DNA of 64,000 bases, from positions 25,544,001 to 25,608,000 of the forward strand of contig NC_135811.1 of NCBI RefSeq assembly GCF_964213995.1. The letters are read 5' to 3'. Source of the DNA: Mustelus asterias. Taxonomy: Eukaryota. The notes below the pieces were generated by a model. The model did no database searches and had not been told where the DNA came from. It saw only the letters and a list, made by a program, of their open reading frames with translations. A program made the position numbers and the translations under genes. This document shows, in pieces, positions 2,691-57,289 of the stretch (positions are counted from its first letter, which is position 1; each line of letters opens with the position of its first letter).

Positions 2691-5600
2691 AGATGGAAGA
2701 CTTCGCTGCAAAGTTAGGGTGGATGTAGACTTGAGACTTGCACTTCAGCTTTGATACATAGAGGAACCATTTTGTTTTATTTGAAGTCTAAGATTAGTAA
2801 GGAAAAAAAAAATGGCCCCAGATCTTTGGCTTGAAATTCCTCATGAACATCATTGTTAGGAACACACCCCCAATGTATGTTTTTATTTAACAAAGCTAAC
2901 ACGCAAATTATCATTTCAATAACATTGTGCTCCATATTTAGACCTGCAACTATAACCAACATTAGCAAAAACCAATCAGAACGACAAAAACAAACTGCGT
3001 CAATTATATAGAACTTATTTTTCTCAATAGTTCAACCACGAGCACAAATTGAAGGCAATAGAGCACATTAAAACAAAGCAGGGCTAGTGTGGTCAGATAA
3101 CAGCACCATGCTCCCAAACAAAGGTCTGCTGTTAACTCCACAGCTCTAATTATGATGGCAGATCTCATCTTCCGTAAGCATGGCTACAAATCAGACAATT
3201 TTTTGCTGTTACCTTAACAGCATTATCAAATAATTTCACAATTAAAATAATTTAACCAAGCGATGTCTAAGCAATCCGATAGAGTCTGCAACAACGACGC
3301 AATGACGTCTGCATTCACTGGAGATGGAAAAGCCTGTGAAAGAAAAAATTAAAGTTTCAATCCTGTTGTTGTAAGGGATATATTTCCTGCAGTAGGCATT
3401 AGGGTATGAGCTTGAGGCGTCTATTGATGGAAATAACATGGATCATTGATCTACGGTGCTTAATATGTCTGCCAGGCGAAATCTGGACCAATCACCCAAG
3501 CAAGCTGATCTATGTCAGTGAAATTCTGCAGCATTCATCCAGATAAGCCTGGAATGTCAACCTGGCATGTCTGGAGCTGAAGAAACCCAACTGTCCTTAA
3601 AAAACCTGTGTGTGCGTATTTTATAATGCTTTCTTAAGGAGATTGATATGGCATATTTTTCTGATCTGATGGAGAGATGGAATAGTTTTGGGTCCCTATA
3701 GATTTGATTTCACCTAGCAGCTCTTAATTGTGCTCTTAAGGGCAGATGTAGTGATAGATACAGCAAAAGAAAAACATTTTTGGCACATCATTTGATGGAG
3801 TTGAGTGGAACCAAAAGCAATTGCATCCTCTAAACCCAAGCAGATTCACTTAACCTCTTTAATTCATACATCCGAACATTAGAATTCGGAGCAGGAGTAA
3901 CCACTGTCCCCCTGGAGCCCATTTCACCATCCAATAAGATCATGGTTGATCCACATTCCCACTTACCCCCACTAAGATTTCACCACCAAGAGGTAAATTC
4001 CTCACTAGAGCAAAAAGCTGCCACACAAACAAGTCTTTTCTACACCGTGAGGAGTGAAAGGGCTTGGGTCCAGGTCAATAATGTGATCAGTAGTGATTGG
4101 TGGGGGAGATATATATAACCATCTAACCCCCCTCCACCCCCCACTCCACACCTTACTGGAACAGGAGAAAGGCACCTCATTGGTACAGCAGAAAGGATAC
4201 AAGTTGTTTTCATATGATTTTATTTTTGTATTAAATTTTATCCAAATTCATAAAGAAGTAAAGTAATACACACTAGCAAACAGTGGATGGAGTGATGAGC
4301 AGAGAATAAAAGAAACATATGTGAACTTGAGAAGGAGAAATAGAAGCAAGAAAACAGAGAGACTTGACAACAGATAACCCCTATGCTTTTACTCTACACA
4401 TCTACATTAATATCTCCAGAGCAAACTGAATAAAAATTGTTGTTCTCCAAAGATAAAATGGTCCTTCTAATTATGATTTTTTATGAAAATTGTGACACTG
4501 CATTAACCCATTTAAAGTGCCTACATTTTAGGCCATAATTTGGGCTAATTTTATCCCAAGGGTTGATAGGTGAGCTTTTATCTTACGCAGAGAAATGTTA
4601 AAAGAGTAAGAATTTCAGAAGTTAAATAAATTAAACAGGATCACAATTTTAAAAATAGGCAAAGAGTGCAATTTAACCCTCTGAAGGCGGCAGATGTGCG
4701 AATTGCGCTCTGGACAAAACATCTGTACGGCTTCTAAAAACGGATTCAGAGAGCAGGTGGAATTGTTCATGTGGTGGATATGAATCTTAGGCTGGTCTTT
4801 CTGATAGTCATGTTACAAACGTGGAGAGAGTCATTGCTACAAACTGTAAAAGGTGGGCAGTGGGGGGAGGGAGGTACTTTTGAAAGCTATAGAGCACACT
4901 CATTCTACAGTGGATTGAAGAGCAAAACTGTTTCTATTTTAAGGTTAACAGAAAATGTTTTGTATGTTCCAGCCAGGAGAGTTCAGTGGAATGACTCAAG
5001 TTCAACTATGTTTATTCACTAAGTTCAGCTATTTAGTGCCCAGAGTAAACATTTATTTATTTTATGAAAAATAAATAATTGGCAAACTGTACTCCACTGT
5101 GACATGGTTTGACCTTCAGGGTGGTTGGTGTACGCTTTCCAAAGCACAGGGACCTTTTTTTGTTGAAGCAGTGATACTAAACGGGTATTGAAATGGAATT
5201 TAATAGCAGCCCACGTTTCAGAACTAGTGTAGTGGTTGCAAAGTAAAGGTTTAACCTTTGTGTCGAATTTTATTTAATTGGGGATTCTCCCAGGTTATGT
5301 TATCAGTAGGCTCTCTGTCTCAGAACAGCAGACTTACAAAAAAAGCACACTTGTTTGTCTAGCTCTCTGTAGCAGTAAAAAATAAATGACTTGTTAGGTG
5401 CCATTATATATGTTACAAATTGTTGTATGAATATACATAGCAAGGGCCAACGGGTCACTCAATGTTATTTCTTATCATAAACAAGAAAGGATTTTCAGCT
5501 TTCGCATGTTCATTGAATTGCGGCATGAATAACATTCTAAAGCCAATAACAGGACGCAGTTTTACTAAAGTCTGTTCTGTTGTGGCTTAGGAAAAATGCT

Positions 5601-15412: not shown

Positions 15413-17125
15413 TTAGAGCCAAATGTTACCAGCATATGGGCCTACCCCCTTTGTCAGGAAGTCTGCCCTTTCTGCCTGCACGCTTGCACTTGGCATAATC
15501 CGGGCTGTTACCGTTTTACAACAAGCGTTCAATAACGCCATACAAATACAACATGCGATAACAATGACAATTAATACAATTAACCCGTGCATCAAGTATG
15601 ATCCCCACGACCCAAACCATTGCCCCAGCCATCCCGGAGGGTTATAATTATGATATTGGCTCCCTTCACCTTGTATTGTCATCGCCACTCATTTGATATG
15701 ATCTGCCAAACGAGTTATATTTTCCGAACCATCTGGGATATATGTGCAGCATTCAGATCCAATTACAGCGCGCGCTCCTCCCTGAGAAGCCAACACATAA
15801 TCGAGTGCCAATCGGTTCTGTAAAGCAACAGTCCGGATAGCTACAACTTCGGCTGATACTTCAGAGATGGCAGTGCTCACCTCCCCGAACCCGTCTCTAG
15901 TTTCATTCGCAATTCTCTCTAAGGTCGAGGCCATATGTATAAGTTCCTGAGCTGCTTTTGCTGTCCCGTAAAGTGGGAAAGCTATCATGAAGAACCGTTC
16001 TGTCTCAGTAATGGCTCGCTTAGTCCTAAGCAGGTGTATCTCGGGGTGGTCCCGTAAGTCGGTGTAATGGTGAATATAGGGTACCACATATGCCAAATAA
16101 CATGATCCTGCCCAATCCCAAGGAAGCCATGGGTAGGCATTGTTCCCGCAAACAAAATAGGTACCATTATATGCAGTCGTGCTGTTCATATAAGTAGAGG
16201 AGAGGCTGACCAGGACGTCAGCAGTGGGGCAATGGACTGTAATCTGTTGCACCAAAAGCCAGGCACCACTGGTGACATTAATCTGCTGGGTACAGTAGCT
16301 ATGGCCCACAGGTATGGTTCCATTCCTTACCAGGCAGATAGATCCCCCTTGTCGATTTTCCACAATGAAGTGGGGTGGGGAATCTGATCTATCATAGCTA
16401 GGCTGGTAATGGTTCGTAAAGGCTGAAAGAGTGCATCCTCCGCCTCCTAACCCCAAAACAGCATCGCTGTCGCTGACATTGAAAGTACCTTGCATAGTAG
16501 TACCTGATGGGGTTTTAAATGCGACTTTCCTTGTCCCGTTCTGGGTTCCATTTTGATTCAAAACCCACTCCACCATTTCCGGAGTTGACAAAGGGATAGG
16601 GAATAAAGGACTTCCCCCATTTCCTCCGTGCGTGGGAATGTGTGAGCAGACCCAGCACTTGCTCAAATTTGACTGTAATGCATGCAAGTGAGACATATAC
16701 ATGAAAGTGTTCACAGGATGGGGCCTGATTTTAGAGGATTGGTACAATGAGCGCTTGGATCGGCCAAATCTCGTGTTACTGTACTCATCCTCCCGAGCCT
16801 TCCGCTGATGCCGGGTACAGGTTGATCCCAGTCGCTCAGCCAAACACCGAAAATTCCAGATACACCAAGTTACATTGCATGGGAAACCCTAATCACCTTG
16901 CCCCTCCAACAGAGTTGGCAACATGGTATGGTTAAGAAATCCTGAGCAGTGGTCCCTACGGGTAACCTCCCAGGGACCTATTCCATGTGTCGGAAGGTTA
17001 CAATAGACAGACTCATCGTTACAGAGATGCTTGCGATGCTCTGCCCCCAAGTCTACACAACTCCACCTATACTTCCCCTCCGTAACTAGCAGGGCAAGGG
17101 TCGTGAGAAGCAGCAAGAAAATCAT
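15413..17125 (-). pseudogene. env: ERV envelope glycoprotein (gamma-type env) with one frameshift and one nonsense codon
   Basis: Signal peptide MIFLLLLTTLALLVT (17125); frameshift ~16850-16900; SU CWVC motif; furin site RTKR then fusion peptide; immunosuppressive domain LQNRLALDYVLA; CX6CC degenerate as RAVIGSECC; in-frame TGA at 15689-15691; TM anchor LIVLIVIVIACCIC. Confidence 0.9.
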
Positions 17126-17219: not shown

Positions 17220-17949
17220 TTAGAGGTCAACCGTCTCGTGTATCTGTGAATTGAGCACATTACATAATTTTTTGCATTTGGCACTGGTATATTCTTTTAA
17301 TTGAGTCCAATGTTTCCAGACACCCCTGCCCTGCATATCCACACAGGCACAAGTATCGCCACTAATTATGACCTTATAGGGGCCATTCCATTTGGGGGCG
17401 AACCCAGGTTTCCCAGGTAACGTCTTCACCATAACCTTGCTGCCCGCCGGAGGTACCTCAGGGGTCTGTTCTAATTTATTTTGCTCATCCTTCACTACTT
17501 GGTTTTCCCTTACTGCTTTTCACATATCCTTCAGTTGGGCGCTTAATTCTAAAACATATCGTCTAATTCTATCCCGTAATGGGCCTACATCCGCCCCACC
17601 GGTAATAATGGACTCGGGCAGTTGCATAGCCCTTCCGGTCATTAACTCATATGGTGTCAACCCAGTGGTTCGATTCGTAGTGGCTCTAAGCTTCATTAAT
17701 ATAATGGGTAACACCTCGGTCCATCCCTTTCCTGAGTCCTGCATGGCCTTAGCTAGGGAGGTCTTGAGTGTTCTATTCATACGCTCCACCATTCCCGAAC
17801 TTTGAGGATGGTAGGGTATGTGAAATTTCTGTTTTATCCCCATAAGTTGACAAATGGTTTTTACTACCCTTCCCATGAAGTGGGTGCCCTGATCAGAGTC
17901 TATTTGTAACGGTACCCCCCACCTTGGGATAACTTCCTCAGCTAATATT
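17220..17949 (-). pseudogene. pol: ERV pol integrase C-terminal half (5'-truncated)
   Basis: ILAEEVIPRWGVPLQIDSDQGTHF...HIPYHPQSSGMVERMNRTLK...GLTPYELMTGR; in-frame TGA at ~17520; GPY/F motif PKWNGPYKV. Confidence 0.9.
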
Positions 17950-20900
17950 GTGACCGTGGTGTTCCTCTCTCCAAGGTGGTGACCAGTGACTCCTCCAGTT
18001 CCTCACGCACGGGTGGACCTCGAGGTGGCAACAATCTCCTGGACTCAGGCAAGCTGTACACGGGAGTAAGAGGATTAAGTGGAGGTCCCGATACTGCCCG
18101 CGCCGTGTCAGGGGGGGAGAGAATGGGCAAAGGAACCCTAACCAGGGGTGCGGGAGTGACGGGGGTTTCCAGGTCCCCTGCAGGCGCCAGATCTCGGATA
18201 GAGACCATGTCCTCTCGCCCGTCAGGATATGCTACATAGGCATATTGAGAGTTGGCGTGGAGGAGGTGGACCTGTTCAACCAAAGGGTCGGACTTGCGGG
18301 TCCTAACATGCCGCCACAGGAGGACAGGTCCTGAGTACATCAACCAAGACGGCAGGGAGGTCCCAGAGGAAGACTTCCTAGGGAAGGTAAACATCCGCTC
18401 ATGTGGGGTAGCATTGGTTGCCGTACACAGGAGGGACCGGATTGAATGGAGCGCATCAGAAAGTACCTCTTGCCAACGGGAGACTGGAAGACCCCTAGAC
18501 CTTAACGCCAGTAAGACAGCCTTCCAGACTGTAGCGTTTTCTCTTTCGACCTGCCCGTTACCCCTGGGGTTGTAACTCGTAGTCCTACTTGAGGCAATTC
18601 CTTTAGAGAGCAGGTATTGGCTCAAGTCGTCGCTCATAAACGACGAACCCCTATCACTGTGGATATAACTGGGGTAGCCGAACAGGGTAAAAAGTCTCCG
18701 CAGGGCTTTGATGACCGTGGCAGCGGACATGTCAGAACAGGGAATGGCAAAAGGGAATCGGGAGTACTCGTCAACCACGTTGAGGAAATACACATTCCGA
18801 TCTGTTGAAGGAAGGGGGCCCTTGAAATCAACACTCAGTCGTTCAGCAGGGCGAGTGGCCTTAATGAGGTGTGCCCTGTCAGGTCGGTAGAAGTGCGGCT
18901 TGCATTCAGCACATACCTGGCAGCTTCGAGTTATCGACCTGACATCCTCCACTGAGTAGGGCAGATTCCGGGCCTTTACAAAATGGAAGAGCCGAGTGAT
19001 CCCCGGATGGCAGAGATCATTGTGGAGGGCCTGTAGCCGGTCCTCCTGCACACTGGCACATGTTCCACGCGACAGGGCATCTGAGGACTCATTGAGCTTC
19101 CCCGGACGGTACAGGATATCATAGTTGTAGGTGGAGAGTTCGATTCTCCACCTCAAGATTTTATCATTCTTAATTTTACCCCTTAAAGTGTTGTTGAACA
19201 TGAATGCCACGGACCGCTGGTCCGTGAGCAGGATAAATCGTTTTCCAGCCAAATAATGGCGCCAATGCCGTACGGCCTCCACAATGGTCTGAGCCTCTTT
19301 TTCCACAGAGGAGTGCCGAATTTCAGGGCCTTGGAGGGTGCGAGAGAAAAAGGCGACGGGCCTGCCTGCCTGGTTAAGTGTGGCAGCCAGGGCGAAATCA
19401 GATGCATCACTCTCCACCTGGAAGGGGATGGACTCATCGACAGCTTTTATCCCTTCAAAGGCTAAGCGAGCCTCTGCTGTTAGGGGAAAAGAGGTAGATT
19501 TTATGAGCGGACGGGCTTTGTCCGCATAATTGGGAACCCACTCGTAATACGAGAAGAAGCCTAAGCATCTTCTCAGTGCTTTGATGCTAGTGGGTAGGGG
19601 AAGTTCAAGGAGGGGACGGATACGGTCTGGATCGGGGCCGATGTCCCCGTTTTCCACCACGTATCCGAGGATTGCTAGGCGGTGCTTGCTGAATACACAC
19701 TTCTCCCTGTTATAGGTCAGATTCAGGCGAGACGCAGTGCGTAAAAACTTCAGGAGGTTGGCGTCGTGGTCCTGCTGGTCATGGCCGCAGATAGTGACGT
19801 TGTCCAGGTACGGGAAGGTAGCCCGTATCCCGTTTTGGCCCACCATTCGGTCCATCTCACGCTGGAAGACCGAGACCCCATTAGTGACGCCAAAAGGGAC
19901 CCTTAAGAAGTGGTAGAGACGGCCATCCGCCTCAAAGGCCGTGTATTTTCGGTCCTCTGGGCGAATGGGGAGCTGGTGGTAGGCTGACTTCAAGTCGATG
20001 GTGGAGAACACCCGGTACTGCGCAATCTGGTTGACCATGTCAGATATGCGTGGGAGAGGGTACATGACCAGCTGCGTGTACCTATTAATGGTCTGACTAT
20101 AGTCTATGACCATCCGGGGCTTGTCTCCAGTCTTAACCACCACGACTTGTGCTCTCCATGGGCTAGTGCTAGGTTGAATGATCCCTTCCCTGAGGAGCCA
20201 CTGAACCTCAGATCGAATAAAGATCCGATCTTCAGCACTGTAACGCCTGCTCTTAGTTGCGATGGGCTTGCAGCCTGGCACGAGATTTTCAAATAAAGAA
20301 GGCGGGGTAATTTTGAGTGTCGAGAGACTGCACGTGGAGCACGTTGGGCAATTTGGAGGCTGCTGTTCTCCCACTGAAAGTGGAGGGAGTGGCCCATCGT
20401 ACTGCAGGGTCACACTCCTCAGGTGGACCAAAAAGTCTAGTCCCAGGAGTACCGGAGCGCAAAGGTGCGGTAACACGAGGAGCCTGAAGTTCTCATAAAC
20501 TGTGCCCCGCACCGTTAGAGTTACCACGCAGCTCCCAAGAACGGTAACAGATCGGGACCTCGACGCCATAGAGATTGTCTGCCTGACAGTTTGTACGCGG
20601 AGAGCGCACCGTTTCACGGTATCCGGATGAATGAAACTCTCCGTGCTCCCGCTGTCAAACAGACAATGTATCAGGCGTCCATTTACCTCTATGTCCATCA
20701 TGGACTTGTCGAGTCTGTGAGGCTTGGCCTGGTCCAGGATGATTGACGCCACTGTTGGATCCCGAGTACAACTGCAGGCAGCTGAGATGGTCGACGATGA
20801 GGACCCCTGCTGGTCGTCTGCGGCCGGTGTCGACCAAAATGGCTGCGCCCATGGATTGCACGTGGTCGATGGCATTGAAAGTGGCGGCACCCGCAGGTCG

Positions 20901-21807
20901 CACGTGTTTTGCGTCGTCGTCATCAGGAATGGCGGCGCCCGTGAATCGCACGTGGTTGAAGACATCGACGAAGCTGGAGACGAGGAGACGGATCCTGGGG
21001 AGTCACACGCAGCACTGTTTGGCTTCGAAGGGGGCTTCGCTCGGCACACTTTAGCATAGTGCCCTTTCTTTCCACAAGCGGAGCAAAATACCGTCCTGGC
21101 CAGACATCTCTGGCGAGGGTGCTTCGCCAATCCACAGAAATAGCACCGTGGGCCTCCTGGAGTTGCCGCAGCCGTCAGGTCCGAGGTTGAAAGCACGATC
21201 GCGCAGTTCCTAGGAGTCGCTGGGTAGAGTTGAGTCGGTGGCTGTACTTCCCACGATGTTCCCACGTGGTCGGTGGGGTAAGTTTCAAGACTTCTGGAGG
21301 CCGTTTCCATCGCATCAGCCAATTCAACCGTCTTAGCTAGGTCCAAGTTACCCTGCTCTAGCAGCCGCAGGCGAATATAGGATGAGCCGATTCCCGCCAC
21401 GAACGCATCTCGGATCAGATCGTTAGTGTATTGAGTAGTCGACACTGGCTTGCAATTGCAGGCTCTGGCTGCTGCTGAAGTTCGCGCTGGTACTGTCCCG
21501 TCGTTTCGCCGGGCTGCCGCCGTCGAGTGGCTAGTAGGTGACGAGCATGAATCTCGTTTGGCGGTTTATGGTACAGCTTCTTGAGTAATTCGATGGCCTC
21601 TTTGTAGTCTTGGGAATCACGGATTGTTGCATATACAGTGTCACTTACCCTTGCGTGGAGGACCCGCAATTAATCGGCGTCGTTTTGGACTGCTGTTGAG
21701 GCGTCGATATAATCCTGGAAACACTTCAACCAATGGTCGAAAGTGTTCGACGCTCCAGCGGCACGCGGATCTAAGGTTAGCCGATCGGGTTTCAGCATCT
21801 GCTCCAT
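17942..21807 (-). pseudogene. gag-pol: Gypsy gag-pol polyprotein (capsid, 2x CCHC, protease, RT, RNase H, integrase), with an 1167-aa open segment
   Basis: ATG at 21807 (MEQMLKPDRL...); TAA at ~21670-21672; frameshift ~21470; then ORF 17942-21445 with CYFC..H..C and CSAC..H..C, LFDSGS protease, RT (DLKSAYHQ, PFG, YLDN), RNase H (ESDAS, EKEA), IN (HNDLCH..C..C, VDFKGP, SDRG, VERE); PR-RT-RH-IN order. Confidence 0.95.
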
Positions 21808-21842: not shown

Positions 21843-22279
21843 TGATGCACGATTAATCCACTCGGGAGGCTAGATCGTACCCGGGAATAAAGGCTTTTAT
21901 CAGCAACAAGAATAGAGCATACTGCTTAACAATACAATGTTTGTGAACAGAATTCCCACTCACCTGAAGAAGGGGCTAAGAGCTCCGAAAGCTTGTGTGG
22001 CTTTTGCTACCAAATAAACCTGTTAGACTTTAACCTGGTGTTGTTAAACTTCTTACTAACAATACAATCCCAGACTAAGGGGTTACTAGGAAGTGCAGTG
22101 ACCTTTATACTCCTATAGGAAGGCGGAGCCAACCGGAGTGTACCACAGAACAATGCTAACAGGTGGAACACCCCAACCCTAACCCCAACAGTAACAAGAG
22201 TAACATATGTACAAGTACCCATAGTGATAACCATCTATGGTTCAGTACCCATAGTGGTAACCATCTATGGTTCACCACA
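21843..22279 (-). repeat. Gypsy 5' LTR, interrupted by a Penelope fragment
   Basis: TGTGGTGAACC...GTGCATCA on the minus strand; TATAAA ~22104-22109; 30-bp tandem duplication at 22214-22273. Confidence 0.9.
21939..22056 (+). mobile_element. Penelope-like pLTR fragment with minimal hammerhead ribozyme
   Basis: TSD TAACAATACAAT (21927-21938 and 22057-22068); CAC-CTGAAGA-AGGGGCTAAGAGCTCC-GAAA-GCTT-GTG; absent from the 3' LTR copy. Confidence 0.85.
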
Positions 22280-27745: not shown

Positions 27746-29239
27746 GACTGTGATATATTTAAAAAGGATTGGAAGGTTGCTTTTAAGAGCTGATCACATG
27801 ATTTGATGGTGATGTCATCAGGGTGTGCCCTCTGGCTGCTGTTTTACTTTCAGTTTTGTATTCAGATGCAGAGGAGAGAGCAGCTCTTCAATAAACACGT
27901 TGTGTTTTAGTTTGAATCTACTTGCGAAAACCAAGTCTTTTGTTTTTCTGTTAAAACCCGCAACCCCTAACATAGTTAGGACATTACAAAAAGAGAATTA
28001 GTGGTGAGTCAGGATTTTGTTTCACCGAGAACATCGAGAAAAGATCCTGAGAGAAAAATTGTGGGTCCTCACACTTCAAATACTAGAAACTGGTGAAAAG
28101 CAACAACAAGGTTAAAGATTGAACTGCCAGTGCCAGGAAGACCAAGTAAGAAAAAGCTGTCTGTGTGATTAAAAGAGTGGGTTTTACTGATCTGAGAGAA
28201 TCAGATTCCAGGCAGTATTTGGCATACTTGAAAAGAATGGATGCTTTGCTGTACAGCTGGGGCTAATTGAAAAAAAAAGTACATAATGTACAAAAATATA
28301 TACTGAGTCACTAGTGCCTGCAAGAGAAATGGCAGGTCAGTTAGGATCAATTCAGGAAATGAATCATAGAGTTCCTACATAGAGCATCTTCAGTGCTTTA
28401 TACAAGCAAATAAAATTGAAAACTAATTGCTCATACTTGCTTTTCTCAGTGCAATAGTATGTAAAGCCCTAATTTGCTCTGAAGCTTGGTTCATCCAGTA
28501 AAGTTAAGAAACCAAAACCTACAATGACTTGACAAAGATCCTTGAAGAACTTTACTCCCCAAAGCCACTGATCATCACGGAATGGTTCTGGTACCTCCGA
28601 AGGAATCAAGTGGTGGCGAAAGCATTGCTCACTTGGTAGCAACCTTAAAAAGGGGGGGCTGGCACAGCATTGTAAGTTTGGTGAGTCGTTAGAAGATTCT
28701 CTTTGAGATTGTCTAGTTTGTGAACTCCAAAATGAGGCTATCCAAAGAAGATTGCTTACTGAACATTTTGAATAATATAAAGGCGTTTTGTCATTAGCTG
28801 TTAGTCGATTGCAAAGCTGGCCACTGTTCCTATCTGCACATTCATATGATTTAAAGTATCATCAATCAAAATGCCATGCTAATGCTGATGCATTATTACG
28901 CTTACCTTTACCTATTGAGTAGATACCATCAACTAGTTTCACTAATATTCTTTATTTTTTACTAGTAGATCATTTACCTGTGACAGCTTTTCAAGTTCAG
29001 GGACCTGCCAGCAATAATCCCATGATGGGGAAGGTGATGGATATAGAACTGGAACTATAGCTGGAAAACCTCGTCTGCATCCTGATTTAAAACTATATGT
29101 GCCAAGAAAGCTTGAGTTGGCCGTCCAAAGTGGGTGCCTATTGTGGGGAATCCAAATGATCGTTCCTCCTAGTCTGCATGGAAGAGTTCTTGAACAACGA
29201 CATGCCATCATCCTTATATAGTCTGGATGAAGAAATTAG

Positions 29240-29606
29240 TCATGATGTGGAGATGCCGGCGTTGGACTGGGGTAAACACAGTAAGAGTTTTAACAACACC
29301 AGGTTAAAGTCCAACAGGTTTATTTGGTAGCAAATGCCATTGGCTTTCGGAGCACTGCTCCTTCGTCAGATGGAGTGGAAATGTGCTCTCAAACAGGGTA
29401 CAGAGACACAAAATCAAGTTATAGAATACTGATTAGAATGCGAATCTCTATAGCCAACCAGGTCTTAAAGATACAGACAATGTGAGTGGAGTTTGAGAGC
29501 ACATTTCCACTCCATCTGACGAAGGAGCAGTGCTCCGAAAGCTAATGGCATTTGCTACCAAATAAACCTGTTGGACTTTAACCTGGTGTTGTTAAAACTC
29601 TTACTG
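29240..29606. mobile_element. Palindromic Penelope-like insertion with hammerhead motifs in both arms
   Basis: Inverted arms; plus-strand HHR CCAT-CTGACGA-AGGAGCAGTGCTCC-GAAA-GCTA-ATGG at ~29512-29549; TSD TGA(A/C)GAAATTAG at 29228-29239 and 29607-29618. Confidence 0.85.
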
Positions 29607-29863
29607 TGACGAAATTAGCACATAGTTATTTTTGGTGGCCGGGTCTGGATGCTCAGATTGAAGAAAACATAGGGACTGTCAATCCTGTGAATGAATAAGA
29701 AATACACCACAGTTGTCTCCTTTATATCCTTGGGAATGGCCCAAATTCCATGGCAATGTATATTCGTAGATTTTGTTGGTCCGTTTGATGGTTACGTGTT
29801 CTTAGCCATGATCGATACACACTCAAAGTGGCCAGAAGTTATCATGACATCTATTAAACTCAA

Positions 29864-37528: not shown

Positions 37529-37798
37529 CATGATGTGGAGATGCCGGCGTTGGACTGGGGTGAACACAGTAAGAGTTTTAACAACACCAGGTTAAAGTCC
37601 AACAGGTTTATTTGGTAGCAAATACCATTTGCTTTCGGAGCGCTGCTCCTTCGTCAGATGGAGTGGAAATGTGCTCTCCCTTTCCACATGTGCACATTTC
37701 CACTCCATCTGACGAAGGAGCAGCGCTCCGAAAGCTAATGGTATTTGCTACCAAATAAACCTGTTGGATTTTAACCTGGTGTTGTTAAAACTCTTACT
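37529..37798. mobile_element. Palindromic Penelope-like insertion with hammerhead motifs
   Basis: Near-perfect inverted arms; HHR CCAT-CTGACGA-AGGAGCAGCGCTCC-GAAA-GCTA-ATGG; duplication CTATTAAAAGCAT at 37519-37531 and 37797-37809. Confidence 0.87.
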
Positions 37799-49020: not shown

Positions 49021-51115
49021 TTATCCATCCAAGGTGAGAAAGTGAGAGCGAATGCATTGCAGAAGTAAAATTATGCACACGAGCAAAAGAATGTATGATG
49101 TTAGACCGAAAACTTCCAGTGGAATTGTGCGGAGTTGTCATATAGCTGTCAGCCACTTTTTTTTTTAGCAGAAACTTGCTGTTCTGGCACTTTCTCTAGA
49201 AATCTGTCAGGATCCTTTTTTCATTAGAAAAGAGCCCTCTGTTATCAGGAGTAGATTGCTTGAAGCAAAAAGAAGTTAACAAACAGTGCCATGCATAATA
49301 TACTTATTGTAAAATATATACATATTTCTTCTTTTTTTAACTGATTTCACTTGCAGATTGCTGATGGCTGTTTGTAAAAACAGATGCACTCTCAATTACA
49401 GCGAAGTACAGGGGGACTTGACAGTGGAACAATTGCCTAACTGGCTATTCCTGTCACCAAACCTCCTAATGCTGCATTTGGATTACAGCCCTGCTACAAC
49501 TAGATAATGCCCAATATTTTGGGCTGCTGGTGTGGCTGAAGTCTCCTTTTGATTGTGAACTGGGGATCCCACAGCACCACCAGGGATGGGCAAACAACTG
49601 AGCATGTCCCAGATTGCAAGCGCGAACTTGTTTGAAAGTTTTCAATTGCATTCGCAGCTACTGGATGTTCCTTAGGAAGATCCATAAAAGTGAGTAACTA
49701 TCGAATCATGGTAGCTGCCAGCTTCAAACATAGCGGTCAGATAGCTGTCTCTGAAGGTATAAGGGAAGCCCCCTTCCTTCTCCAAGTCTCCGCTCCTCCA
49801 AGGAAAGCTGCACATCCAGTTTATTTATTTAAGTGAAAGAAAACTTTTAAGTGCTGCTGCCATCGCAAAGACTTACTCCCCCCTCCCCTGCATTGTGCCT
49901 CCTCCCCAAACGCCCCCCCCCCCCCCCCCCCCCCCCCCCCATAGAGCTTAATCTACTCTCAACCCATTCTAATCGTCTTTTGAATGGGGATTCAGACCAT
50001 TTCTTGGCTGCAAGTCTGAATGAGAATTGGTGACTCTCAATCCAGGGGCCCTGTTTTGGGAGTTCGGAGGAATAATTAGGGATTGACAGGATCCCATCTC
50101 TCCACAGATTTTGGAACTTGGACATATTCCATCAAGGGTCATGGTGGACCCCTGTCTGAGATGTCACCTATCCTGAAGCTGTTTCTTATTTCGCAATGAG
50201 TCCTCTCCACGGCCTCTCCGTGGGGGTCACTTGGTTTTGTACAAGTATCTAATACACTCCAGGTGTTTAGAACAAATGAAGTGATATGTGTCTGATGGAA
50301 ACAATGCCTGAACATTCAGCAGGGGAAAAAACATAAAATGTGTGGTTCGGGGCTGATTTATCAACATCATTACTGAAGTAATTACGCTTTTTAGAATGGG
50401 CTTAGATTTATTCAACCAGATTCAAGTAATTAATAAGTTGCAATTCAGTTGAAATAAAAATAGCACCTTAGTCTAACTGTGAAAGTTTTTAAATGAAATT
50501 TAACAGGAGTATTTCAAAGTTGTCTAAATCGTTTGACATGTAACTTCTAGCGGAGGCACTGAGATTATGACCGTTCTTCCGTTTTCTTGCTGTAACTTGA
50601 GTAACTGTAAAAGCCAACAGAAATTGTTCAGTTTACATGCCAAAAAAAAGAGAGCTTGGTCTCACATATTACTACAATACAAATCTAATTTGCTGTACAA
50701 ACGCTATTAAAGTATTGACCTTCATTTGCTCTAATTAGTATAATTACTTCTAATTGTAGGCACACATGGAAATATAATTGGCAACCTCCCCAAATTCTGG
50801 TTCCGATTGATATATACAAGAGGGTGCTTGTGACATTTCTCCGGCGTTGTGTTCAACTCGGTTTAGCTTCAATTAAGGATGTGTTTATACTGCAATATTG
50901 GTATCAGTGCAAAACAATTCACACTTTGCATCAATGCTGCACTGTCAACACAAATCTTGCGTTCAGGAGAGACAAGGAACCTTGAGTGAGGCGGATGGAG
51001 TGTGAGTCCCTGGGGGAGCTAGTCTGATGCCACTTCAGCTTGACACCGCATAGGGTGCAGAAACATGCAAACACTTTGGCAAATCCGGCTTTGCGAAGAT
51101 ATTCACAAGATAGAT

Positions 51116-51635
51116 CAGCATTGCTGTCTCACAGTGCCAGGGGCCCAGGTTCGATTCCGGCCTCGGGTCGCTGTCTGTGTGGAGTTTGCACGTTCTCCCC
51201 GTGTCTCCGTGGGTTTCGTCCGGGTGCTCCGGTTTCCTCCCACAGTCCAAAGATGTGCGGGTTAGGTTGATTGGCCATGCTAAATTGCGCCTTAGTGTCA
51301 GGGGGATTAGCTCGGGTAAATACGTGGGGTTACGGGGACAGGGCCTGGGTGGAATTGTTGGTCATGATGTGGAGATGCCGGCGTTGGACTGGGGTAAGCA
51401 CAGTAAGAAGTCTCACAACACCAGATTAAAGTCCAACAGGTTTATTTGGTAGCAAATACCATAAGCTTTCGGAGCAATGCTCCTTCGTCAGGTGGAGTGG
51501 TCTCTGTTCTCAAACAGGGCACAGACACAGAATTCTGTAATTTAACCTGGTGTTGTGAGACTTCTTACTGGAATTGTTGGTGCAGACTCAATGGGCCGAA
51601 TGGCCTCTTTGTGTACTGTAGGGATTCTATGATTC
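51116..51635 (+). mobile_element. HE1-like V-SINE interrupted by a Penelope-like insertion (51363-51568)
   Basis: Insert flanked by 13-bp TSD TGGAATTGTTGGT (51350-51362 and 51569-51581); minus-strand HHR core CTGACGA-AGGAGCATTGCTCC-GAAA-GCTT. Confidence 0.88.
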
Positions 51636-52009
51636 TATTATTTCTGAAAGTTATAAATTTAAACAAGCATTATTAGGTCTTTCTTTTCTTCAGAAGTCTT
51701 TAACATAGAACTCCCTGAAGATTTTATAAATAAATACCTTTAATTTAAATAAACAGTGAGAGGAGATCCTTCCCTCTCTGTTCTTTAGATTTCTCACTTT
51801 CCTCACTAATTTCGATTTCTCACTCTTGGTTGATGGCATGAGCCAAGGTGGACGGTTAAAATTCCAGTTAGACAGAAGCCAAAGCTTTGCTGCAACCAGA
51901 ACTGCGGCTACTTGCTGGAGGGTAATTGTATCCTAATTAGTTGCTATGTGAGCACGTAGCAGACCCTGCCAGTTAAGCAGATACAAAAATACCTATTGGC
52001 TGTTGTACT

Positions 52010-52232
52010 TGGTTGTCCTGGCTAATAATCCTCTCACAACCACCAGCACCAAAAACAAACTGACCATTCATTCGATTGTTGTCTATGGGATCCTGCTGTG
52101 TGCTAAATAGCTGCTGCGATTCTCTTGCTAATTTTGTCACTGCATCTCATTTAAAAGTCATTGTTTGGTGCAGAGTACTTGGAGATGTTTCTGAGAAACA
52201 TAATGCCCACTGTAAATACAAGTTCTTTCTTA
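52010..52232 (+). mobile_element. DeuSINE relic (Deu domain and tail)
   Basis: TGTCCTGGCTAATAATCCTCTCACAACC...TATGGGATCCTGCTGTGTGCTAAATAGCTGCTGCG...AAATACAAGTTCTTTC; similar relic at 58540-58872. Confidence 0.55.
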
Positions 52233-52732
52233 AAACAGGCATAAGCTAGCATTGAGGGGGAGCCATTCATTCCCATCCTTGTTTATATACAGCTCCTTGT
52301 GAATTAGTTACGAAACTCCATTGACAGTGGGCAGGATATTTTGGGGGGTGGGGGGGGGGGGGCGCGGCGGTGGTGTTGGACAGCTTCCCTCCCCCCCCAC
52401 TGAGGTGTGAATCAGCGTGGAGTCCGCCCCGCAGCCATGACGCACTGTGGGTGGGCTCACTTGGAGGAAGTCCCACCCTCAGGAGCTGCCAGCCAATCCG
52501 ACTGGCTGGCAGCACCACCAGTCCAGGAGCACCAAGAGAGCATTAGTGGGCATTGCCGGGACTGCAATGAAGAAGAAAAAGGCCCGATGGATCCCAGAGG
52601 CTGCTCGGTCTGGGGTCTGTGCAGGGAAGGTTTGGGCCGGTTAAGGCAGGGGAGTGGGTGTGCTGGGTTAAATACAGTAAGAAGTTTAACAACACCAGGT
52701 TAAAGTCCAACAGGTTTATTTGGTAGCAAAAG

Positions 52733-52777
52733 CCACACAAGCTTTCGAGGCTCTGAGCCCCTTCTTCAGGTGAGTGG
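52733..52777 (-). ncRNA. Minimal type I hammerhead ribozyme (copy 1)
   Basis: CCACUCAC-CUGAAGA-A-GGGGCU(CAG)AGCCUC-GAAA-GCUU-GUGUGG: conserved core, 6-bp stem II, palindromic AAGCUU stem III. Confidence 0.8.
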
Positions 52778-53069
52778 GAATTCTGTTCACAAACAGAACT
52801 TATAAGACACAGACTCAATTTACATGAATAATGGTTGGAATGCGAATACTTACAACTAATATCTTGTCTGCTTTCTTGCATCTTTGTAGAAACTTGATGT
52901 CTGTGTCGATATGCGCGATCTTCTTGGCGATCCTCTCCACTTGGAGCCGGCAGTTTGCGGTGTCTATGGTAGTCATGATGTGGAGATGCCGGCGTTGGAC
53001 TGGGGTAAACACAGTAAGAAGTTTAACAACACCAGGTTAAAGTCCAACAGGTTTATTTGGTAGCAAAAG

Positions 53070-53114
53070 CCACACAAGCTTTCGAGGCTCTGAGCCCCTT
53101 CTTCAGGTGAGTGG
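53070..53114 (-). ncRNA. Minimal type I hammerhead ribozyme (copy 2)
   Basis: Identical to copy 1, +337 bp. Confidence 0.8.
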
Positions 53115-53406
53115 GAATTCTGTTCACAAACAGAACTTATAAGACACAGACTCAATTTACATGAATAATGGTTGGAATGCGAATACTTACAACTAATATC
53201 TTGTCTGCTTTCTTGCATCTTTGTAGAAACTTGATGTCTGTGTCGATATGCGCGATCTTCTTGGCGATCCTCTCCACTTGGAGCCGGCAGTTTGCGGTGT
53301 CTATGGTAGTCATGATGTGGAGATGCCGGCGTTGGACTGGGGTAAACACAGTAAGAAGTTTAACAACACCAGGTTAAAGTCCAACAGGTTTATTTGGTAG
53401 CAAAAG

Positions 53407-53451
53407 CCACACAAGCTTTCGAGGCTCTGAGCCCCTTCTTCAGGTGAGTGG
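53407..53451 (-). ncRNA. Minimal type I hammerhead ribozyme (copy 3)
   Basis: Identical to copy 1, +674 bp. Confidence 0.8.
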
Positions 53452-53914
53452 GAATTCTGTTCACAAACAGAACTTATAAGACACAGACTCAATTTACATG
53501 AATAATGGTTGGAATGCGAATACTTACAACTAATATCTTGTCTGCTTTCTTGCATCTTTGTAGAAACTTGATGTCTGTGTCGATATGCGCGATCTTCTTG
53601 GCGATCCTCTCCACTTGGAGCCGGCAGTTTGCGGTGTCTATGGTAGTCATGATGTGGAGATGCCGGGTAGCAAGAAAGGGAGTGTTCTCTCTTAAGGGAG
53701 GGAACACCACCTGATCTGAAAAAACACAGCCCCTGAAAAAAGGGCACCGCTTTCCTTCCCACATTCTGAATTGCTTTTAAAACTGGGCTGCCCGCTACAA
53801 CCCAACGGTCCCCGTCAACCATGTTATGACAGGGGCAATGTATTATGGGGGTCACTTGGCTTGAAAACAAATCCTGTTGATCTTTGATTATCTATTTCCA
53901 TATGAGGAGCAGGT

Positions 53915-55130
53915 TAACCACTGAGGGACCATGGGAAGCGGGGACAGGGGGAGTTAGCCACTGGGGGACCATGGGAAGTGGGGGGTGGGGTGGGGGGGGG
54001 GAATTAGCCACTGGAGGACCATGGGGAGTAGGGGTGAGGAGGGGAACTAGCCACTGGGGGACCATGGAAAGTGGGGGGTGAGGGGGGGAATTAGCCACGG
54101 GGGAACCATGGGGAGTGGGGCAAGGGAGGAATTAGCCACTGGGGGACCATAGGGAGTGGGGGGCTGAGGGGGGGATTAACCACTGGGGGACTACGGGAAG
54201 TGGGGGTGAGGGGGGAATTAGGCACTGGGGGACCATGAGAAGTGGGGGGTGAGGGGGTCAATTAGCCACTGGAGGACCATGGGGAGTAGGGGTGAGGAGG
54301 GGAACTAGCCACTGGGGGACCATGGAAAGTGGGGGGTGAGGGGGGGAATTAGCCACGGGGGGACCATGGGGAGTGGGGCAAGGGAGGAATTAGCCACTGG
54401 GGGACCATAGGGAGTGGGGGGCCGAGGGGGGGATTAACCACTGGGGGACTACGGGAAGTGGGGGTGAGGGGGGAATTAGGCACTGGGGGACCATAAGAAG
54501 TGGGGGGTGAGGGGGTCAATTAGCCACTGGAGGACCATGGGAAGTGGGGCGTGAGGGTGGAATTAGTCACTGGGGGACCATGGGGAGTGGGGGGGTGAGG
54601 GGGGAATTAGCCATTGGGGAGCCATGGGAAGTGGGGCGAGAGAGGGAATTAGCCACTGGGTGACAATGGGAAGTGGGGGGCCGAGGAGGGAGATTAGCCA
54701 CTGAGGGACCATGGGAAGTGGGGGGCCGAGGAGGGAGAATTAGCCACTGGTGGACCCTAGGGTGTGGGGGGGGGGGGGGGGACTTAGTCACTGGGGGACC
54801 ATAGGGAGTGGGGGGCGGGGGGAATTAGCCACTGGGGGACCATGGGGAGTGGGGGCCAAGGAGGGGGAATTAGCCACTGGGGACCATGGGGAGTGGGGGA
54901 GTGAGGGGGGAGATTAGCCACTGGGGGACCATGGGAAGTGAGGGGTGAGGGGGAGTGGGGAGCTAAGGGGGGAAATTAACCATTGGGGAGCAATGGGAAG
55001 TGGGAGGTGAGGGGGGGATTAGCCATTAGGGGGCCATGGCAGGTGGGGGGTGAGGGGGGGATTAGCCACTGGGGGGCCATGGCGGATGGGGGGTGATTAG
55101 CCACTGGGGAGCAATGGGGAGTGGGGGCAG
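53915..55130. repeat. G-rich ~37-bp minisatellite (GGAATTAGCCACTGGGGGACCATGGGAAGTGGGGGGTGAG-like) with a 258-bp higher-order duplication
   Basis: Direct read; AATTAGCCACTGGAGGACC recurs at 54002, 54260 and 54518. Confidence 0.9.
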
Positions 55131-55244
55131 TGGGAGGGCAGGGGTGGTGTTGGCATTGGGGGTGTTGAAAACCCGTGAGGTGGCTGGGTGAAAGATCACT
55201 GTGAAGGGTGTGTGAGGATGTGCAGCGGGAGATATCAGGAGGCA

Positions 55245-55365
55245 GACTTGCCCTGGCTGCATGAAGAAGCTCATTCATCATCTTGCGGCACTGTTGTCCT
55301 GTCCTCTGCTGCAGCGCACTGGCACTCACATTCGCAGCCACTGCCTCCCAGAGGGCTGGAGACCT
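55245..55365 (-). pseudogene. PIF/Harbinger-type Myb/SANT DNA-binding domain relic
   Basis: WEAVAANVSASALQQRTGQQCRKMMNELLHAAR fits the W..VA..V.....RT..QC.K...DL pattern. Confidence 0.6.
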
Positions 55366-56119
55366 TGGTGGAGAACATGTGGGTCACATACTGGCCAGAT
55401 CAGGTGAGAAAGGCAGGTCTGAAGATCAATCATTTTGGACTCAAAACATGAACTCTGTTTCTCCCACACCTTCCTGTTTGAGATATCATTTTGTATCAGA
55501 GATTTAGCTGGTGAAAGATCAATTTGTGACAAACCTATTCAATCTTTAATTGGTTGGATTATCAGCTCATTGAGCCTGTTTGTACCAGATAAAGAAAACA
55601 GGTAAGGTGTTTTACGGCACAAAGTTTGGATTAGTAAGGGTGATGGTGCCATGGAAACTGGAGGTCCTCTGAGTGGGTAACACTGCTCCTCTCAGTATGT
55701 GACGGGCAGCTCGTGCTGGGGAGGTGCTGGTGTCCTCATCCCTTTTGTTCACCAGCAGCCTCTGAAGCGATGCTGACATGCAGCCCTGCCAACTGATCGG
55801 ATGCTGCGTGTGCGACCTTGGGCCACACAGGTCCATCTTTAACCTATTCACTTGCCGCTCACCAAATTTCCAGTGTTCAGGTGCAAGAGGGACCCAGTGG
55901 AGTGGTTTTAGCGGGTCGCGGTGAGTTCTTGGATTTGGCAGGAAGAGTCACTGCGAGAATTGGTGACCTGTCCACGCAAACAACAGGTACGGACAGGGTA
56001 ATAGCTGCAGTATCTCCAGTTCATCAAAGTCTTCACCTGAGTCCCCTGAAGCAGAAAACATCTGCAACCTTCCCTGCTGACACACAAACTATACTTGCCT
56101 GTTGACCCTAGTTGCAGCC

Positions 56120-56450
56120 TGTGATGAACCATCGTTGGTTCCCACCAGGTAGTACTGAGCCAGGGTCTGGCCAGTACTATGAGTCTGTATATATGTTACT
56201 GTTGGGGTTAGGGTTGGGCTGTTCTACATGTTACTGTTGGGGTTAGGGTTGGGCTGTTCTACCTGTAATATAGTTATTATGGTACATCCCAGTCGGGCTC
56301 CGCCTCCTGGGAGAGGTATAAAGGTCACTGCTCTGTCTGGGACCCTTCAGTCTGGGATCGTGTACTATATATGGTAGCTCTATTGTAGTAGTCAATAAAA
56401 GCCTTTATTTCCTCGAGCATCTCTAGCCTCGTGAGTTATATCGCGCATCA
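56120..56450 (+). mobile_element. Solo LTR related to the 14458-22279 Gypsy family
   Basis: TGTGATGAACCAT...TATAAAGGTCACTGC...AATAAAAGCCTTTAT...CGCGCATCA, colinear with the 5' LTR; TSD CAGCC/CAGCT (4/5). Confidence 0.88.
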
Positions 56451-57169
56451 CAGCTCATTACTGTTCAACACCTCCTCTTGTACAGATTCCAACTCTAGAC
56501 CAACCTCTAAGATACATGCAGTGCCAGCCAGAGTGGCTAACTTTTGAGGGATTGTCTAAGGGACGCCTTTTGTCCCTTATTTCTAGTTCATTTGGTCACC
56601 AGCACCCAACTGTCCCAGTCCCGTGGCCGATGTCTACCTTATTTTATTTTATGAGTGTTAGTTACCCTTGTGCTAGTCACTGCAAGTGTTAGATCAAGTG
56701 CCTCTTCTACGCTGTTCCTCTCTCCCCTCCTCCTGAGTGTGCTGTGGGCAGGCAGGCAGGAAATCAGAAAGGGGAAGGTTAGAGTGCAGGGAGTGGGCTA
56801 GGCAGGTGACCAGGAGATCCATGGTCATACCCTCTGCAGCTTTCATTATCTATCAGATAGCAGGAGGTTAAACCAAGTGTTGTGAATGGGCAGGATGTAA
56901 AGAATGGGGCAAACCACCCCTCCATAGCATTCAGGTGATCCAGACGTACTTGTCCCCAACCAGTTCTGCTCTTTCTAAAATGTGCGGCCTATGAGAGAAG
57001 GAGCAGAATGTCAATCATTTCCATTGCACTGTGTTTGGGTGTTATGCCTTCCACTACCAGATAGCAGCTGGAGATACGTGAGAGCAGCAGGACCTGTGTG
57101 AAGCCGGCATCAATGGAACATGTGTGAATGTGAGATGGAGTATCTGGATGTTAGGCATGAATCCTGAGT

Positions 57170-57192
57170 AAGAAGTCTCACAACACCAGGTT
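57170..57192 (-). mobile_element. 23-bp Penelope pLTR micro-insertion
   Basis: AAGAAGTCTCACAACACCAGGTT flanked by 13-bp duplication ATGAATCCTGAGT (57157-57169 and 57193-57205). Confidence 0.75.
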
Positions 57193-57289
57193 ATGAATCC
57201 TGAGTGCCAGGGATTGTTGCTGGGTGAGTGATGGAGTTGAGGTACATTGAGCAGCATGAGAGGCTGGGAGAATGTGATGATGCATTCAC

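Follow-up and report, generated by a model that had tools for sequence, protein, structure and literature searches.

A young tandem array of an internally deleted Penelope-like element, with a hammerhead motif in each unit, in the genome of Mustelus asterias

A recent insertion of 2.9 identical units

In the window, by which we mean the whole 64,000-nt stretch of Mustelus asterias DNA analyzed here, Tandem Repeats Finder places a repeat at 52663-53666 with a period of 337, 3.0 copies and 99% matches. Units 2 and 3 form the identical pair, and unit 1 deviates at 52668 and 52673 only, close to the array edge. These two differences are target DNA and not mutations. Of the four read runs compared at this locus, X1 is the only one that covers both flanks, and it contains the empty site in a 1,437-nt contig that reads 52350-52677, two letters and 53662-53900, with zero differences otherwise. 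An empty allele thus exists, the site is apparently polymorphic, and the true insert is not 52663-53666 but 52678-53661 (minus strand), which amounts to 984 nt or 2.92 identical 337-nt units. The earlier note had described about three identical 337-nt tandem units, and the period stands within these narrower limits. None of the listed read contigs bridges flank and array, and the filled allele and its unit number are those of the assembly.

With the ends set by the X1 contig, we find no target-site duplication at the array, and microhomology is present at both ends instead. At 52663-52677 (plus strand), the target DNA resembles the element tail at 13/15 bases; this is the end at which reverse transcription likely started, about -38 from the ATG, and one of the two usual insertion 3' ends of the Penelope-like element (PLE) family. 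At the 5' junction, the X1 contig and a comparison of the ends reveal a GCCGG common to target and element (53662-53666, plus strand). The units had been described as permuted; the array does start and end mid-unit, but its 3' end is the normal one of the family rather than the product of an arbitrary permutation.

Each unit joins the first 39 codons of a PLE ORF to 3'-end sequence on the minus strand (53534-53650, 53197-53313 and 52860-52976 for copies 1 to 3). At the junction, ORF position +117 meets position -221 of the 3' UTR, in the 3' pLTR, via one common A (53534, 53197 and 52860, respectively). An AATAAA follows in every unit (53389-53394, 53052-53057 in unit 2, and 52715-52720). Both features had been noted previously, with the codon number, given then as about 39, now exact. 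A possible 71-nt intron, GTAAGT...ACAG, occurs once per unit and ends just before the hammerhead motif (53120-53190, minus strand); it is a candidate by analogy with the 75-bp intron described for the Penelope 5' UTR (PMC8557442, PMC4209133). The GC content of the unit is 43.9%, below 50%.

Five other PLE pLTR fragments lie in the window, at 21938-22057, 29237-29608, 37529-37798, 51361-51570 and 57167-57193. Three of them are inverted pairs, and most come from older subfamilies whose stems I and II are different. A G-rich minisatellite at 53914-55127, 250 nt from the array, has repeats of about 43-44 nt and a higher-order 258-nt period. Two open frames on the minus strand, at 17945-21565 (1,207 codons) and 15692-16888 (399 codons), are putative LTR retroelement parts by their look.

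The parent element and its subfamilies

The PLE origin claimed for the unit is borne out by an exact match: the unit equals bases 1-134 plus 2895-3097 of a parent element (equality test true). This parent is a tandem 3097-bp PLE with an intact 893-aa ORF at G000:C10:36.79 Mb (L128, G000:C10:36.786-36.793 Mb), and the array is a young insert in which this PLE, internally deleted, is present in 2.9 copies. The parent protein matches RVT_1 (E 4.3e-10), and its closest named relatives are shark proteins. GIY-YIG is detected only below the cut-off (E 3.4e-4), on an older relative, and also among homologues. The parent agrees with an EN+ PLE, a type marked by a single ORF with RT and C-terminal GIY-YIG and by pLTRs, partial tandems, an inverted 5' arm and a 30-40-bp tail, and it probably belongs to the Penelope/Poseidon clade.

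We observe a second near-complete open PLE frame at G000:C1:2.16 Mb (L089) and three tandem near-full-length units at G000:C4:69.47 Mb (L170), the latter with a period of 2991, about 106 nt below the 3097-bp reference. The family looks currently active. Subfamily A, with the 29-nt hammerhead motif of the array, has 9,228 exact matches, and subfamily B, with a sister variant of this motif, has 4,725. A further abundant subfamily (L223-L242) has the hammerhead end GCUA or GCUC before GUGG, with about 13,500 matches of one motif. Across the family, 3' ends gather near -38 and +2, and tandem and inverted arms are common. Given these 3' ends, we judge the correspondence of +111/+117 to anole initiation sites to be a coincidence.

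The hammerhead motif in each unit

On the minus strand, each unit has the layout CUGAAGA, an extra A, a 6-bp stem II, GAAA and GCUU followed directly by GUG, with a stem I of 3 bp and the predicted cut after GCUU. The cores start at 53443, 53106 and 52769. In transcript order, copy 1 of this minimal type I hammerhead spans 53406-53452 (predicted cut between 53413 and 53412, from motif and stem pairing), copy 2 spans 53069-53115 (core 53106-53100, GAAAGCUU at 53083-53076, predicted cut between 53076 and 53075), and copy 3 spans 52732-52778 (predicted cut between 52739 and 52738, from the motif). The layout is that of the minimal PLE hammerhead in PMC4209133, and in helix sizes and loop 1-2 contacts it is not the canonical type I. 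The ATG follows about 100 nt downstream of the motif, and the predicted 3' cleavage product starts at -99.

The proposal of a minimal, dimer-type hammerhead on the minus strand agrees with the pairing of its stems. Stems I and II hold in 8 copies, with 98% of cells paired compared to 32-52% when slid, and 2/7 stem pairs are altered on both sides, in a sample of 8 hand-picked copies that are few and related. For one pattern among the fetched loci, stem II has at least 4 bp in 11/11 distinct versions versus 0.45 when shuffled. A search of Rfam, including the Hammerhead_1 check that had been suggested, gives zero matches at E<=1 over 50000-57000. The motif region folds at -15.6 kcal/mol, and its MFE fold differs from the hammerhead fold. 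When the dimer is folded, stem II forms between the two units; a rough model puts the cost of the active fold at about 19 kcal/mol. The fold predicted for the circular 337-nt monomer is unremarkable (MFE -80.1, z -1.54 vs 100 shuffles, 55% paired).

The array junction is present at one other locus

With up to 2 mismatches allowed, the junction 24-mer has four matches in the assembly, three in the array and one at C3:79.15 Mb. The genome search that the earlier note recommended thus finds the junction not only here, yet it does not reveal a dispersed family. At C3, the copy is flanked by a 13-nt target duplication, comes with an inverted arm and one direct hammerhead, and differs from the array at 8 sites. 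Six of these differences fall in its UTR part, where five are alleles of subfamily B; in the ORF part, the array carries subfamily A alleles and the C3 copy the majority non-A allele at the single site seen in reads. Since the only other copy of the junction comes from a different subfamily, these alleles suggest that the two junctions probably arose independently, and we judge it unlikely that the C3 copy is a donor or daughter of the array. With the junction at 2 loci only, in different subfamilies, the array is a one-off and not part of a dispersed retrozyme family. The same search of the assembly found no same-subfamily donor with the array junction.

Back-splicing was rejected as the source of the junction, which is not flanked by GT/AG. 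Nor is -221 supported as a transcription start: genome-wide, 0.57% of copies end there (21/25 fetched matches scored), compared to 0.95% at a control position, and the ORF-start sample described below contains a weak excess of such ends (4/62, array included). Without such a start, that two subfamilies have one and the same junction must be put down either to chance or to a bias of the local sequence.

Sibling minis and a second array

Relatives were sampled with the exact subfamily A ORF-start motif, which has 232 matches; the first 100 represent 93 loci after tandem members are merged. At 26/93 of these loci, array included, the ORF start is joined to the 3' end, and we refer to such copies as minis. 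Junction points vary among them, with landings mostly at +55 to +120. Short solo ORF-start pieces (L133, L154, L191, L193, L194 and L195) end at +68 to +98, which suggests that these are real RNA 3' ends in the range of the junction landings.

The count of arrays covers only the first 100 listed of the 232 matches; there, 2/26 minis are multi-unit: the 337-nt array and a second array at G000:C1:152.232 Mb (L137-L139). The latter is of the same subfamily and consists of 3.5 copies of a 214-nt unit. Every full unit contains a hammerhead, and a junction different from that of the 337-nt array (ORF +57 to -157) appears three times, unchanged. Both arrays stop away from their own junction, which in each of them recurs cleanly and without variation, with 0 or 1 shared base. 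Target duplications of 12-15 nt are present at 12/17 chosen loci; neither array has one, nor an inverted arm.

In 8/23 minis, no more than 3 nt separate the 5' end of the insertion from the entry point of the junction, versus 0.72 minis expected on a circle (P 2.4e-7); these 23 have their entry point in the pLTR or 3' UTR, and the 3 minis entering within the ORF were left out. One extra base is found at the junction in 7/26 sampled minis, and L132 takes off at -248 twice, with two different landings. L101, L176 and L004 each have an identical junction in both inverted arms, and the L101 junction is found at the L101 locus only, so that both strands were templated by a single RNA molecule whose ends were fixed, or else by a circle. 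A mini at G000:C2:64.15 Mb (L148) has two direct hammerheads about 286 nt apart and is a candidate seed for hammerhead-cut circles.

Insertion ends at the predicted cut

Among the 93 sampled loci, 9/62 5' ends fall within 3 nt of -99, versus 1.44 expected (P 1.3e-5), and 4 fall within 1 nt. In L152, L172 and L185, -99 is junction point and 5' end alike. Genome-wide, a non-canonical base precedes -99 in 2,376/50,385 copies, and 16/21 of those inspected are true ends, which gives about 3.6%. The value is 0.95% at the upstream control, -139 (431/34,054; 15/20 true ends, one row corrected by hand), and, as given above, lower still at the second control, -221. Family 5' ends are thus about fourfold enriched at the predicted cut relative to the upstream control.

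The enrichment does not resolve into a sharp single-base peak: a control two bases downstream, itself confounded by another subfamily (13,499 matches), is nearly as high, with 6 versus 9 true ends in a hand count of C/G-preceded matches over the first 23.4 Mb of C1. In a 37-locus sample chosen for intact hammerheads, 0/30 ends lie within 1 nt of the cut. The positions of the -99 ends hint that the hammerhead may cleave in vivo in the PLE family, with RT stalling at the structure as a possible alternative source. In the anole study, no RNA reads ended at the cut site and cleavage needed protein (PMC11167929).

How the array arose

At least two copies of the array junction arrived with the insertion itself, by reverse transcription. 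Had the array begun as a single-junction insert with the ends seen today, that insert would have lacked any direct repeat; moreover, the tail copies inside the array are not the same as the target sequence. Duplication at the DNA level alone can therefore not have begun the array. On this point, the earlier claim that reverse transcription passed the junction more than once is upheld, with at least two passes by RT.

We favor, with about even confidence, an origin in one retrotransposition, in which the PLE RT went over a single short linear RNA some three times by self-jumping. This template would have spanned -221 to +117 relative to the ATG. Priming would have occurred at about -38, aided by the likeness of the target to the element tail; the RT would then have jumped from the RNA 5' end back to its own 3' end, for about three passes, and synthesis would have ended via the GCCGG microhomology. 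A later read-through transcript could form dimeric hammerheads and release 337-nt monomers, which would make the array a potential retrozyme seed and not retrozyme offspring. The signature of a linear template comes from the one-jump minis, from which we infer it for the arrays. The 5' ends at the entry point in 8/23 minis argue for linear RNA and end-to-end template jumping, and these ends, the extra bases and the double landing of L132 are marks of RT run-off and jumping on linear RNA. End-to-end jumping at RNA 5' ends with non-templated bases is described for the R2 RT (PMC4117753, PMC3414825), and PMC3846280 invokes template jumps for other PLE structures; in the literature searched, we found no demonstration of template jumping by a PLE RT.

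A covalent circle predicts the clean, identical junctions and the off-junction ends of the arrays at least as well as jumping does. One such circle would be a ligated PLE fragment closed at the ORF/3'-UTR junction and copied by rolling circle, with its lone hammerhead uncut inside. The three identical clean junctions in both arrays, the array 5' ends off the junction and the identical junctions in both arms of L101, L176 and L004 are consistent with it, and RtcB circularizes retrozyme RNA in vitro (PMC7229834). We nevertheless regard this circle as unlikely, as ligation cannot give the stops at the entry point in 8/23 minis, the extra bases in 7/26 or the two landings of L132, and its modeled fold (z -1.54, 55% paired) is unremarkable. 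The earlier note instead pointed to a 337-nt circle cut by the hammerhead and re-ligated. Here, following a model proposed in PMC4209133 and PMC7229834, an unseen donor mini with two hammerheads 337 nt apart would be transcribed, cut as a dimer, circularized at the cut and copied by rolling circle. Two-hammerhead minis such as L148 exist, the predicted cut has an excess of family 5' ends and serves L152, L172 and L185 as both junction and 5' end, and a single assembly can miss a donor. This route is not the likeliest, however, because it needs a donor with the junction between two hammerheads and the assembly holds none of this subfamily: outside the array, the junction is found only at C3, in a copy of the other subfamily with 8 differences and one direct hammerhead. 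The related minis point to linear templates, and stem II of the dimer pairs across units at the modeled cost of about 19 kcal/mol for the active fold. Li, Clavereau and Pollet (2026; 10.64898/2026.07.22.740005) report in vitro cleavage for only 1/9 Xenopus dimers, and cleavage by the PLE hammerhead of the anole depends on protein (PMC11167929). We consider it unlikely.

That the array grew mainly by DNA-level tandem amplification after a simpler insertion, a satellite-birth route proposed for retrozymes in 10.64898/2026.07.22.740005, would account for the identity of the units, and the third unit could have come in this way. As the main process it is improbable, given that the ends set by the empty allele leave a one-junction precursor repeat-less, that identity to a young subfamily is 100% and that the site is apparently polymorphic. 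An assembly artefact would explain why contigs showed the empty allele only and why no listed piece joined flank to array, but contigs drop such links. We find it very improbable, as alleles of one subfamily lie on both sides of the junction in a form seen nowhere else, the 3' end is a normal initiation site, and the array is not alone: there is a second one, and minis are numerous, with target duplications of 12-15 nt seen at 12/17 chosen loci.

Beyond the origin of this one array by self-jumping, we advance, with rather less than even confidence, a broader reading: that the PLE RT routinely re-copies its own short RNAs end-to-end, such that hammerhead arrays, as retrozyme seeds, are born in one insertion without a circle, and that insertions starting exactly at the cut are a record of in vivo cleavage. 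In the literature searched, outside which most subscription papers lie, we found neither PLE mini-arrays ascribed to self-jumping nor insertions described as ending at the hammerhead cut.

Relation to known systems

The retrozyme-like layout ascribed to the locus, with 337-nt head-to-tail units and a hammerhead in each, is confirmed. Non-LTR retrozymes, as defined by Cervera and de la Pena 2020 (PMC7229834), are head-to-tail repeats whose units measure 150-450 bp and each contain a type I hammerhead, and they share with the array a GC content below 50%, the lack of LTR features and an origin from PLE pLTRs (PMC7229834, 10.64898/2026.07.22.740005). In the 2020 definition, retrozymes also self-cleave, occur as linear and circular RNA and have a highly self-paired circular monomer; for the array unit, the predicted circular fold is 55% paired. 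The array also has the three units and the hammerhead motif of the 2026 operational definition (10.64898/2026.07.22.740005). It is therefore of an already known kind, PLE-derived non-LTR retrozyme repeats, and a very young example. It differs from the retrozymes of PMC7229834 in that its hammerhead is minimal and not, as in most described retrozymes, canonical and in that it is a single young locus rather than a dispersed multi-copy family, and 39 codons are retained in it that match the parent ORF at 100% identity. It also has no target duplication; in retrozymes, these are optional and, when present, longer than 4 bp (PMC7229834).

The family of the array resembles EN+ PLEs, probably Penelope/Poseidon (PMC4209133; anole PAc, PMC11167929), in its pLTR with a minimal hammerhead, its two 3' ends about 40 nt apart, its partial tandem and inverted arms and its single RT-EN ORF. 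Compared to a full EN+ PLE, the array unit is without 2,760 of 3,097 bp and is repeated three times, and the hammerhead of the family lies about 100 nt 5' of the ATG, whereas that of PAc lies over the ATG (PMC11167929). The MRC1-type non-autonomous PLEs of Chlamys (PMC8557442) are likewise short derivatives, often multicopy and head-to-tail, but the MRC1 clade is described there as without canonical hammerheads and as established families, in contrast to the apparently private junctions here. R2 SIDEs (PMC3414825) are also short and internally deleted, with ribozyme and 3' end kept; unlike the array, they belong to another RT class, have an HDV-like ribozyme and occur as single units in rDNA, and their authors favored recombination as the origin (PMC3414825).

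Li, Clavereau and Pollet (10.64898/2026.07.22.740005) report retrozymes in 20/31 vertebrates, among them one chondrichthyan whose mean consensus length is 363 bp, and derive non-LTR retrozymes from PLE pLTRs. Of the Penelope-to-retrozyme transition in a shark that the earlier note had proposed here, the PLE link holds, but the link itself, one chondrichthyan included, was already drawn in that work, which leaves the origin step open between local amplification and rolling circle. What this locus contributes, together with its siblings, is a parent that is both young and intact plus some two dozen recent derivatives, which show how repeats of this kind arise; the array is likely a snapshot of retrozyme birth. 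Evidence of cleavage in vivo, a question on which the -99 ends bear, is not reported in the PLE hammerhead papers. The intact 893-aa protein and the defined short RNAs make the questions of origin and cleavage directly testable in vitro.
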